Assembly: GCF_055900595.2 (NCBI RefSeq)
Contig: NZ_CM148325.1
Strand: one strand, 5' to 3'
Length of the DNA stretch: 64,000 nucleotides
In this document: positions 7,915-31,895 of the stretch, piece by piece
How the letters are laid out: the number at the start of each line of letters is the position of its first letter
Position numbering within the stretch: position 1 is the stretch's first letter
Notes under the pieces: model-generated
The model's input: the letters and a program-made list of their open reading frames with translations, nothing else
Database searches by the model: none
What the model was told of the DNA's origin: nothing
Made by a program: the position numbers and the translations under genes

Positions 7915-9168
7915 ATGTTAAAGCGTGAAATGAACATTGCCGATTATGATGCCGAACTGTGGCAGGCTATGGAGCAGGAAAAAGTACGTCAGGAAGAGCA
8001 CATCGAACTGATCGCCTCCGAAAACTACACCAGCCCGCGCGTAATGCAGGCGCAGGGGTCTCAGCTGACCAACAAATATGCTGAAGGTTATCCGGGCAAA
8101 CGCTACTACGGCGGTTGCGAGTATGTTGATATCGTTGAACAACTGGCGATCGATCGCGCGAAAGAACTGTTCGGCGCTGACTACGCTAACGTCCAGCCGC
8201 ACTCCGGCTCCCAGGCGAACTTTGCGGTGTACACCGCGCTGCTGGAACCCGGCGACACCGTTCTGGGTATGAACCTGGCGCATGGCGGTCACCTGACTCA
8301 CGGTTCTCCGGTTAACTTCTCCGGTAAACTGTACAACATCGTTCCTTACGGTATCGATGCTACCGGTCATATCGACTACGCCGATCTGGAAAAACAAGCC
8401 AAAGAACACAAGCCGAAAATGATCATCGGTGGCTTCTCTGCATATTCCGGCGTGGTTGACTGGGCGAAAATGCGTGAAATCGCTGACAGCATCGGTGCTT
8501 ACCTGTTCGTTGATATGGCGCACGTTGCGGGACTGGTCGCTGCTGGCGTCTACCCGAACCCGGTTCCTCATGCTCACGTAGTGACTACCACCACTCACAA
8601 AACCCTGGCGGGTCCGCGCGGCGGCCTGATCCTGGCGAAAGGCGGTAGCGAAGAACTGTACAAAAAACTGAACTCTGCCGTTTTCCCTGGTGGTCAGGGC
8701 GGCCCGTTGATGCACGTAATCGCTGGTAAAGCGGTTGCTCTGAAAGAAGCGATGGAACCTGAGTTCAAAACTTACCAACAGCAGGTCGCGAAAAACGCTA
8801 AAGCGATGGTAGAAGTATTCCTGGAGCGCGGCTACAAAGTGGTTTCCGGCGGTACTGATAACCACCTGTTCCTGGTTGATCTGGTTGATAAAAACCTGAC
8901 CGGTAAAGAAGCTGACGCCGCTCTGGGCCGTGCTAACATCACCGTCAACAAAAACAGCGTACCGAACGATCCGAAGAGCCCGTTTGTAACCTCCGGTATT
9001 CGCGTGGGTACTCCGGCGATTACACGTCGTGGCTTTAAAGAAGCCGAAGCGAAAGAACTGGCTGGCTGGATGTGTGACGTGCTGGACAGCATCAATGATG
9101 AAGCCGTTATCGAGCGCATCAAAGGTAAAGTTCTCGACATCTGCGCACGTTACCCGGTTTACGCATAA
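7915..9168 (+). CDS. glyA: serine hydroxymethyltransferase
   Basis: 417 aa from the ATG at 7915, 6 nt after AGGAG; PLP-lysine motif [14 protein letters not shown]. Confidence 0.96.
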
Positions 9169-9202
9169 GCGAAACGGTGATTTGCTGACAATGTGCTCGT
9201 TG

Positions 9203-9306
9203 TTCATGCCGGATGCGGCGTGAACGCCTTATCCGGCCTACAAATTATTGCAAATTCAAGATATTGCAATCTCCGTGTAGGCCTGATAAGCGTAGCGCAT
9301 CAGGCA
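9203..9306. repeat. REP cluster (two inverted REP units) between glyA and yphH
   Basis: gccggatgcggcgtgaacgccttatccggcctac and gtaggcctgataagcgtagcgcatcaggc. Confidence 0.8.
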
Positions 9307-9365
9307 ATTTTTCGTTTGTGATCATCAAGGCTTCCTTAGGGAAGCCTTGTTACGTTATCGCGCCA

Positions 9366-10559
9366 TCAAATCTGTCGTAACTGCGCCTCAACATACAAAT
9401 AGCCAATCCCCAGCACCTGCTGTGCGCGGCTTAATTGCCCAAAGCCAATTTGCGTCGATTTCACGCTCGGTCCTTCGTCACGGTCGAACGGGTTAAATCC
9501 TGTCTGGCGAATAATGGAATTAAGCCAGTTCTCACCAAAGGCGCAGCTGCGACCATACAGCCAAATCTGATTAATATTGAGGATGTTGAGGAAGTTATAC
9601 AGACTCAAACCAATGGCGTTGGCACTGCGGTCAACCCAGCTGGTGATCCACGGTTCTCCACTCTGCCAGGCAGCGATTAATTGTGCGGTTGTCAATTTTT
9701 CAGGATCAAGCTGAGTATTCACCGGTTGTGATTTTAGCCATACTCGCGCCTGTTTTTTTAATGCGCTTAACGAGGCGACGGTTTCCAGGCAGCCATAATG
9801 TCCGCAGTCGCAGACGACACCATCCGGATTAACGATGGTGTGACCAATCTGTCCGCTACCATACAAACTGCCGCGATAAATTTGCTCGTTAATCACGAAC
9901 GACGAGCCAATACCGTAATCAACGTTGATCACGCAGAAATCCCGTCCTTGCGAATTATTTTGCCATTTCTCCGCCAGCGCCAGCATCACGCAGTCATTAT
10001 CGACCATCACCCGAATGCCCAGCTTCTCTTCCAGCAGATACTTCACCTCAACCGGCGTTGTCCACGGCGCTTGCGGCATGGTTTGCGACACGCCAGTCAC
10101 TGGATCAACCTGACCGTGGATTGCCAGCGCCAGGTTGATAGTACGGTCCGGCCACAGTTTACGATGACGATGCCAGCATTTTTCGATTTCGGACAACAGA
10201 GCCTGCGGTGTCGGTGCATCAATCTGAAAATACTCAAATTCGCCTTTCGGACTTAAACAGGCATTAGCGACCTGACACTCAATGCTGGTGGGCGTCACGT
10301 TCAGGCACAGCGTCCAGTCACCTTCCGGCGCGATCAGCCATGTACCGCTACTGTGCCCGCGCGTCTGGCTTTCATCGTCGATATTCACCACCCGTTTTTC
10401 GCTTTCCAGCTCCTGCAAAATATTACTGACTGCCGGAATCGAAATTTGCGCCAGCCGGGCCAGCGTTGATTTATTGGCGCGCTTTTGCCGGTACAGCAGT
10501 TCCAGAATCACGCATTTGTTATGGTGGCGAATCTGTTGATTATTAATGCAGGCTCTCAT
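9366..10559 (-). CDS. yphH: ROK-family (NagC/Mlc-like) transcriptional regulator
   Basis: 397 aa from the ATG at 10559 (the GTG two codons upstream is an alternative); N-terminal HTH and ROK sugar-kinase-like fold with the CDCGHYGC zinc motif. Confidence 0.85.
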   Translation of the reverse strand: MRACINNQQIRHHNKCVILELLYRQKRANKSTLARLAQISIPAVSNILQELESEKRVVNIDDESQTRGHSSGTWLIAPEGDWTLCLNVTPTSIECQVANACLSPKGEFEYFQIDAPTPQALLSEIEKCWHRHRKLWPDRTINLALAIHGQVDPVTGVSQTMPQAPWTTPVEVKYLLEEKLGIRVMVDNDCVMLALAEKWQNNSQGRDFCVINVDYGIGSSFVINEQIYRGSLYGSGQIGHTIVNPDGVVCDCGHYGCLETVASLSALKKQARVWLKSQPVNTQLDPEKLTTAQLIAAWQSGEPWITSWVDRSANAIGLSLYNFLNILNINQIWLYGRSCAFGENWLNSIIRQTGFNPFDRDEGPSVKSTQIGFGQLSRAQQVLGIGYLYVEAQLRQI

Positions 10560-19613: not shown

Positions 19614-19706
19614 AATGCCTGATGCGACGCTTGCCGCGTCTTATCAGGCCTACAATCGGTGTTGGAACGGTAGGCCGGATCTGGCGTTCACGCCGCATCC
19701 GGCATC
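19614..19706. repeat. REP cluster between yphB and yphA
   Basis: tgcctgatgcgacgcttgccgcgtcttatcaggcctaca and gtaggccggatctggcgttcacgccgcatccggca. Confidence 0.8.
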
Positions 19707-30897: not shown

Positions 30898-30903
30898 CCG
30901 AGG

Positions 30904-30992
30904 TTGCCTGATACGGCGCTTAACGCGTCTTGTCAGGCCTACATTGTACTGAACCCCTGGTCGGATAAAGTGTTTACGCCGCACCCGACAAC
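30904..30992. repeat. REP cluster between trmJ and iscR
   Basis: gcctgatacggcgcttaacgcgtcttgtcaggcctaca plus a partial second unit. Confidence 0.75.
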
Positions 30993-31059
30993 AGGTACAA
31001 ACGCCACGATAAAAAAATGGCACTGAAGGTTAAATACCCGACTAAATCAGTCAAGTAAA

Positions 31060-31655: not shown

Positions 31656-31664
31656 TTTAACCGT

Positions 31665-31800
31665 CCTGTTTCGTGTTGCATCTGCGTTGACTGTACATAC
31701 TCACTCCGGTCACTTACTTATGTAAGCTCCCGGAGATTCGTAAGTTTGTCAACTTGCTGAAACCCGAAACAGTTAGGTTAAAGATAACAAGATATTAGAA
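31665..31800. repeat. ERIC-like element inside the iscR-iscS intergenic region
   Basis: 31698-31741 tactcactccggtcacttacttatgtaagctcccggagattcg matches the conserved ERIC central inverted repeat; outer boundaries are approximate. Confidence 0.6.
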
Positions 31801-31895
31801 TCAGGCCGGGGCGTCTCGCGCTCCGTAAACACGGTCGTACATCCAGCCGGTAGCCTGGTTCCTTGCATTGAGTGATGTACGGAGTTTATAGAGCA

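Follow-up and report, generated by a model that had tools for sequence, protein, structure and literature searches.

The first descriptions of REP and BIME elements date from 1984, and the literature covers their classification and placement, their interactions with IHF, gyrase, and RayT, and their variability between strains. BIME-1 elements, also named RIB or RIP, were reportedly described by Boccard and Prentki (1993), Oppenheim (1993), and Bachellier (1994), whereas the REPIN/RAYT systems are said to have been described by Bertels and Rainey in 2011 and TnpA_REP by Ton-Hoang in 2012. A BIME-1 combines one y and one z1 unit around a long, conserved L linker, which often contains an IHF site, and is present in a single copy per locus (PMC3333891). 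The linkers of BIME-1 elements bind IHF, and BIME-2 binds gyrase (PMC3333891). GC-rich cores of 9 bp for z1 and 14 bp for z2 support the view that Z1 is shorter than Z2 (PMC1584274). Citations of Gilson (1991), Boccard and Prentki (1993), Bachellier (1997), and Liang (2015) follow what PMC3333891, PMC8266576, and PMC12306157 convey of these works.

The DNA analyzed, termed the window in the following, is a 64-kb stretch of an E. coli chromosome. It contains nine REP units at five sites, one of which lies between glyA and yphH. The relevant features are the following:

9207–9241, + strand: y-type REP, first arm of the glyA BIME-1 (TGCCGGATGCGGCGTGAACGCCTTATCCGGCCTAC; nhmmer E = 1.9e-10; exact head and tail motifs)
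9242–9276, + strand: L-type linker of 35 nt with an IHF-consensus-like site (ATTCAAGATATTG at 9254–9266)
9277–9306, − strand: z1-type (short) REP, inverted, second arm of the glyA BIME-1 (TGCCTGATGCGCTACGCTTATCAGGCCTAC on the − strand; nhmmer E = 3.3e-5)
9326–9349, no strand assigned: 10-bp GC-rich hairpin past the BIME (CAAGGCTTCC TTAG GGAAGCCTTG; predicted in both RNA senses)
38360–38459, strand by unit: second BIME-1, with y REP 38360–38394 (+), 35-nt L linker, and z1 REP 38430–38459 (−)
19616–19705, strand by unit: BIME-2-type pair, with z2 REP 19616–19653 (+), 16-nt linker, and y REP 19670–19705 (−)
30905–30992, strand by unit: diverged BIME-2-type pair, with z2 REP 30905–30942 (+), 15-nt linker, and decayed y REP 30958–30992 (−)
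1771–1803, − strand: lone degenerate y-type REP (nhmmer E = 8e-6; hairpin of −18.6 kcal/mol)

The elements at 9207–9306 and 38360–38459 share with BIME-1 (RIB, RIP) the inverted y and z1 units around an L linker of about 35 nt, the single copy per locus, the IHF-type site, and the location at the 3′ end of a transcription unit. No structural difference from BIME-1 was found in either; the IHF-like site ATTCAAGATATTG is one mismatch away from the IHF consensus WATCAANNNNTTR, and such sites occur 1.19 times per kb in the window. The short z of both elements is presumably z1, an assignment that fits the linker associations, as the short z accompanies a 35-nt linker twice and the long z a 15- to 16-nt linker twice. 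The pairs at 19616–19705 and 30905–30992 each resemble BIME-2 in combining z2 and y across a 15- to 16-nt linker and in occupying loci that vary in copy number; however, BIME-2 is the tandemly amplified class, whereas each of the two sites in the window holds one pair and no tandem array. With REPIN/RAYT systems the window shares inverted REP doublets and GTAG-tagged hairpins with a stem mismatch, but a REPIN is built from one REP present twice, whereas the BIMEs of E. coli combine different classes (y with z). ERIC/IRU elements are likewise short imperfect palindromes in transcribed intergenic regions whose presence varies between strains; they represent a different sequence family of approximately 127 bp without the GTAG foot and unrelated to RayT. 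An ERIC-like copy was found at approximately 31657–31783 and is not among the five REP sites.

Detection and folding of the REP units

The REP head motif GCCKGATGCG was found seven times as an exact match in the window, compared to 0.73 expected occurrences, and none of 100 shuffled sequences reached this number. The tail or foot motif TTATCMGGCCTAC, with at most one mismatch allowed, occurred six times versus 0.11 expected, and again no shuffled sequence reached this count. Searches allowing one or two mismatches were performed as Hamming scans. Single-mismatch matches to the head motif were scattered in coding DNA, and head and tail motifs were found together solely at the five sites. A tail match with two mismatches at 63688–63700 falls within repeats in the coding sequence of a large adhesin gene; as it lacks the head motif, it was rejected as a REP. 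An nhmmer profile constructed from the window's own aligned REP units and run on the window returned nine units, all with E values of at most 3.3e-5 and all confined to the five sites, followed in rank by palindromic opposite-strand self-matches of these units and then by noise at E > 0.8. Because of this clean gap between units and noise, the list of five sites can be regarded as complete for the window.

All nine units could be aligned to each other and match the y, z1, and z2 REP classes. Eight of them form the REP hairpin, with folding energies between −12.9 and −21.7 kcal/mol and z scores between −3.3 and −6.4. An internal stem mismatch, i.e., one unpaired position, was present in six units, namely, the five intact y and z2 units and the degenerate unit downstream of purL. 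The GTAG/CTAC foot was kept in six of the nine, replaced by CTTAC in one, and absent from the decayed units 1771–1803 and 30958–30992. With nine units in 64 kb, compared to approximately eight expected from the K-12 rate of 584 REPs per 4.64 Mb (PMC3333891), the REP density of the window is average. Genome-wide repetition was evident as well: a 331-bp query including the glyA BIME gave a median of at least 39 matches per genome among the matches listed (5,425 genomes).

A preliminary description of this DNA had placed REP clusters at five sites and called them expected for E. coli. REP sequences are indeed present at all five, with four of the sites located to within 0 to 5 nt, and the y, z1, and z2 classes together with the ordinary density agree with what is expected for this species. 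The proposed scan for a REP consensus, performed with the head and tail motifs and nhmmer, recovered exactly these sites. Only the cluster placed at 1776–1815 had to be revised: a REP is present there, but it is the single degenerate y unit 1771–1803, and the interval had been extended 12 nt too far. The suggested comparison with K-12 was made by aligning the five spacers, as REPs do not appear among the annotated features in the RefSeq tables of NC_000913.3. Taken together, the five sites very probably represent ordinary REP/BIME repeats of E. coli, and 9207–9306 is with the same high confidence a BIME-1 in the 3′UTR of glyA.

Placement relative to genes

Gene positions were taken from the nearest genome. 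Each of the five sites falls between genes, even though intergenic DNA represents only 8.9% of the annotated DNA; random placement of five sites would give this outcome with a probability of 0.089^5, i.e., approximately 6e-6. The distance from the stop codon to the first REP is 22 nt for purL, 38 nt for glyA, 9 nt for yphB, 5 nt for yphA, and 7 nt for both trmJ and pepB, in line with the earlier assignment of the sites to gene ends. Among the spacers of at least 40 bp, REPs occupy two of three convergent, three of 20 tandem, and none of five divergent ones. The convergent sites are glyA/yphH and yphB/yphA, whereas the remaining three lie between codirectional genes, so the claim that the sites are often at convergent junctions holds for two of the five. 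As regards the term operon boundaries, pepB-sseB is a codirectional junction for which an operon boundary is not established. For practical purposes, the five sites are reliable landmarks for gene and 3′UTR ends in the window, with little import beyond annotation.

The BIME-1 downstream of glyA

The glyA stop codon occupies positions 9166 to 9168, and the first arm of the BIME-1 follows at 9207. The hairpin of this y REP has a folding energy of −21.3 kcal/mol (z = −5.3) and one stem mismatch; that of the z1 REP at 9277–9306, whose sequence is identical to that of 38430–38459, has −12.9 kcal/mol (z = −3.3). The CTAC/GTAG feet of both REPs point toward the L linker. The BIME is followed by the hairpin 9326–9349, which is 16 nt away from the yphH stop codon (9366–9368, − strand) and is kept in every allele, including those lacking the BIME. 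This hairpin is not followed by a T-run, and a terminator scanner made no call in 9100–9450; from its predicted fold in both senses, it is likely a shared 3′-end hairpin of glyA and yphH. With the glyA stop codon on one side and this conserved hairpin on the other, the BIME is almost certainly transcribed within the glyA 3′UTR. In the glyA sense, the RNA segment that begins at the stop codon and extends beyond the hairpin folds with −85.6 kcal/mol (z = −8.4). For K-12, Plamann and Stauffer (around 1990) reportedly located the 3′ end of glyA approximately 185 nt after the stop codon and are said to have observed lower glyA mRNA stability upon removal of the REP-containing 3′ region. This reported distance would correspond to position 9168 + 185, i.e., approximately 9353 in the window.

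The other four sites

The second BIME-1 starts 7 nt past the pepB stop codon, ahead of sseB. Its y REP has a mutated foot, with CTTAC in place of CCTAC, and its linker carries the IHF-like sequence ATTCAAAAAATTG, likewise one mismatch from the consensus, at 38407–38419 and thus at the same offset as in the glyA BIME-1. The two linkers are identical at 26 of 35 positions, and the two elements, located 29 kb apart, are 88% identical over 104 nt. The BIME-2-type pair 19616–19705 fills the 104-bp convergent yphB/yphA spacer, leaving 9 nt to the yphB stop codon and 5 nt to that of yphA. The diverged pair 30905–30992 starts 7 nt past the trmJ stop codon and is located upstream of the iscR promoter region; its y unit has decayed and no longer folds well (z = −1.0). 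Compared to 19616–19653, the z2 unit 30905–30942 shows three stem transitions (G·U to A-U, U-A to U·G, and A-U to G·U), all of which keep pairing, and its fold still reaches −20.8 kcal/mol. The lone unit 1771–1803 lies 22 nt downstream of the purL stop codon (position 1748) and is followed by the intrinsic terminator of purL, consisting of the hairpin 1825–1846 and a T-run.

Variation between strains and age of the glyA element

For comparison, 5,426 complete genomes of E. coli were used, and the K-12 spacers (NC_000913.3) were aligned directly. In both the window and K-12, the glyA-yphH spacer comprises 197 bp, with differences limited to the linker. Of the 5,426 genomes, 1,932 (36%) contained the full region with the glyA BIME-1; in the other approximately 3,490 (about 64%), which include O157:H7, ST131, and O111, the match to the 331-bp query spans 197 bp. 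In three genomes with the BIME-less allele that were examined, the spacer measures 62 to 63 bp and approximately 134 bp are missing, corresponding to the BIME plus flanks of approximately 16 and 20 nt, with an identical junction in all three and the hairpin intact.

The glyA BIME-1 is found at the same place in E. albertii NBRC 107761, in Escherichia sp. MOD1-EC7003, and in the divergent "E. coli" SCPM-O-B-8794. As these three outgroup Escherichia genomes carry it, its presence is most simply explained as ancestral; judged from these alignments, the element probably predates the split of E. coli and E. albertii, and the short allele is probably a deletion that has spread. Hardly any changes separate the outgroup alleles in the z1 arm or in the IHF-like site of the L linker, and the y arm has been changed by substitutions in E. 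albertii and MOD1-EC7003. Read in the glyA sense, the changes in the stems keep pairing as G·U at eight sites versus one A·C, and one change is a compensatory CG-to-UA exchange. A covariation test of the hairpins on six Escherichia alleles was not significant, as 78 and 62 out of 500 shuffles scored at least as well. The 8:1 excess of G·U over A·C is at most suggestive, and a C-to-T bias on the nontemplate strand could also explain it.

Both BIME-2 sites of the window differ from K-12 in copy number. At yphB/yphA, K-12 has a y unit alone in a 47-bp spacer, the window has two REPs, and in Nissle 1917 a REP remnant accompanies the pair. At trmJ-iscR, the number of BIME-2 units is one in the window, two in Z1323PEC0012, three in tandem in K-12, and zero in D1. 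Such differences in copy number between strains are as published for BIMEs, a subject on which Bachellier et al. (1997) bears according to its title. The BIME-1 at pepB-sseB was retained in all but two genomes of the set (5,424), and the purL REP was intact in approximately 58%, K-12-like genomes having an 18-bp internal deletion. That the glyA BIME-1 is old yet absent from about two-thirds of the sequenced E. coli genomes, together with the BIME-2 copy differences from K-12, is a modest, mildly useful addition to what has been described. The presence or absence of the glyA element and the copy numbers at trmJ-iscR and yphB/yphA are possible typing markers, and strain-variable REP loci of this kind could confound short-read assembly or expression comparisons.

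Two further repeats were observed around iscR. In D1, the trmJ-iscR spacer (L021:136-270, equivalent to 30898–31000) contains an unrelated GC-rich repeat, CCCCTCGCCCCTTCGGGGAGAGGGTTAGGGTGAGGGG, and no REPs. This repeat was found at trmJ-iscR in 1,432 genomes (approximately 26%), occurs at a median of two places per genome, and may be boxC-like; the spacer thus hosts two different repeat families, depending on the strain. The iscR-iscS spacer comprises 240 bp in the window versus 111 bp in K-12 owing to an insertion of approximately 127 bp at 31657–31783, directly upstream of the Rfam iscRS element (31785–31894). This insertion was present in 489 to 492 of the 5,426 genomes, and its core, tcacttacttatgtaagctcccggagattc, resembles the ERIC/IRU central palindrome. 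Its location in the iscRS regulatory spacer could alter expression of the isc operon.

Possible functions and alternative explanations

Mechanisms known for the REP/BIME family likely operate at the glyA locus as well. At the RNA level, REP hairpins in 3′UTRs impede 3′-to-5′ exonucleases and stabilize the upstream message (PMC3333891 and, as far as conveyed by citing work, the Newbury and Higgins references); by analogy, the stable stem-loops of the BIME-1 would slow these enzymes and protect the glyA message upstream. At the DNA level, the L linker would bind IHF, and gyrase as well as Pol I could bind to the REPs. In single-stranded form, the GTAG-tagged hairpins may serve as substrates that are bound and cut by RayT/TnpA_REP, and cutting of such hairpins by RayT would explain the variation in BIME copy number between strains. 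For binding and cleavage, RayT/TnpA_REP needs both GTAG 5′ of the hairpin foot and a mismatch in the stem; its cuts fall between CC and T at CCT sites, which may lie in a linker or in the inverted partner (PMC3333891). The combination of a GTAG/CTAC foot and a stem mismatch was found in 9207–9241, 19616–19653, 19670–19705, and 30905–30942, as well as, with a mutated foot, in 38360–38394, so the earlier suggestion that the sites are potential targets of REP-associated transposases is consistent with the sequence of five units. The two z1 units keep GTAG and fold without a stem mismatch. No rayT gene was found within the 64-kb window; among the E. coli genomes, rayT was present in 3,574 of 5,426 (66%), the same two-thirds as in the published count of 74 of 110 genomes (PMC3333891). 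Finally, REPs less than 16 nt past a stop codon can stall terminating ribosomes and lower translation, according to Liang et al. (2015) as conveyed by PMC12306157. The REPs of yphB, yphA, trmJ, and pepB, at 5 to 9 nt, would fall inside this range, whereas those of glyA (38 nt) and purL (22 nt) are outside.

Whether the sites represent a repeat family at all, whether their hairpins act as terminators, and whether the glyA element serves the host are separate questions. Short GC-rich palindromes do arise by chance, and single-mismatch head matches do occur in coding DNA; nevertheless, that all matches are chance palindromes or ordinary hairpins is practically excluded by the seven exact heads and six tails versus 0.73 and 0.11 expected, by the co-occurrence of head and tail at the five sites alone, by the separation of the units from noise in nhmmer, by two 104-nt elements that are 88% identical at a distance of 29 kb, and by dozens of repeat matches in every E. 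coli genome. We consider this reading refuted. It is also highly improbable that the REP hairpins themselves are transcription terminators setting operon ends. They are GC-rich stem-loops just past stop codons, and BIMEs have been linked to transcription attenuation (PMC3333891; Espeli et al., 2001, as far as conveyed through citing work). However, T-runs are absent downstream of the REP units, the scanner called no terminator in 9100–9450, separate hairpins follow the REPs at purL (1825–1846, a classic terminator) and at glyA (9326–9349), and genomes without the BIME keep the hairpin at glyA. Because of the missing T-runs and the separate downstream hairpins, this role was rejected, and the REPs are regarded as 3′UTR hairpins instead.

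The glyA BIME could also be a selfish or neutral passenger without host function, a relic of past RayT-driven spread that tolerates a 3′UTR position. This possibility, which we consider somewhat doubtful, would agree with the approximately 134-bp deletion that about 3,490 genomes of the set carry and that left a 62- to 63-bp spacer and the hairpin intact, with the decay of the y arm in outgroup genomes, with the visible decay of the purL unit and one trmJ-iscR unit, and with the different repeat that about 26% of the genomes hold at trmJ-iscR. It is at odds with the retention of the same glyA site since before the split of E. coli and E. albertii, with the near invariance of the z1 arm and the IHF-like site across outgroup genomes, and with the functions published for the family (PMC3333891); the stem changes, mostly to G·U (eight versus one A·C) plus one CG-to-UA exchange, also speak against it, although a transcription-linked C-to-T bias may have produced them too. 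A stronger functional proposal is that the glyA BIME-1 is an ancient 3′UTR module under RNA-level selection in the glyA sense and that its loss from approximately 64% of the genomes constitutes a regulatory polymorphism. We regard this proposal as unlikely. If it were true, stability of the mRNA for glyA (serine hydroxymethyltransferase) and local IHF binding would differ between K-12-like strains and O157:H7 or ST131. With regard to any function of the element at this locus, including those known for the family, the whole BIME-1 is missing from about 64% of E. coli genomes, O157:H7 and ST131 among them, which indicates that it is dispensable at glyA. The alleles with (36%) and without (64%) the BIME represent a natural experiment on the share of BIME-1 in mRNA stability.

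Genomic context of the window

The window corresponds to the K-12 chromosome from approximately 2.693 to 2.63 Mb, read in reverse. Its gene order is purL - glmY - glrK/qseG/glrR - glnB - hmp - glyA - yphHGFEDCBA in the first part, hca - csiE - suhB - trmJ - iscRSUA-hscBA-fdx-iscX - pepB - sseB - ryfA - sseA in the middle, and yfhM - pbpC - ndk - rlmN - rodZ - ispG - hisS - bamB - der - yfgJ - sinH in the last part. At gathering thresholds, Rfam models identified GlmY, iscRS, ryfA, and sroE, each at the expected place, and gave no match to a REP family in the whole window. Among complete genomes, NZ_CP098223.1 comes closest, with 99.96% identity and a collinear alignment as far as approximately position 58,952. 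Identity between K-12 and the window is approximately 95 to 96% and ranges from about 93 to 97% over long core-gene stretches, lower than the identity usually seen from one E. coli phylogroup to another. For the segments tested, just 8 to 16 of the 5,426 complete genomes reached at least 99% identity, so the window comes from an unusual lineage.

Past position 58,952, the window diverges from NZ_CP098223.1, in which sinH and the neighboring adhesin gene are split pseudogenes. Three direct repeats spaced 804 bp apart at 61989–63656 resemble the repeated domains that a long adhesin gene of the intimin/invasin-like type would encode, and K-12 has no such gene at the same position. Between ryfA/timP and sseA, at 39666–39757, the alignment to K-12 breaks and overlaps, indicating, at the level of the alignment, a possible rearrangement or duplication difference from K-12 in the ryfA/timR/timP small-RNA toxin region.
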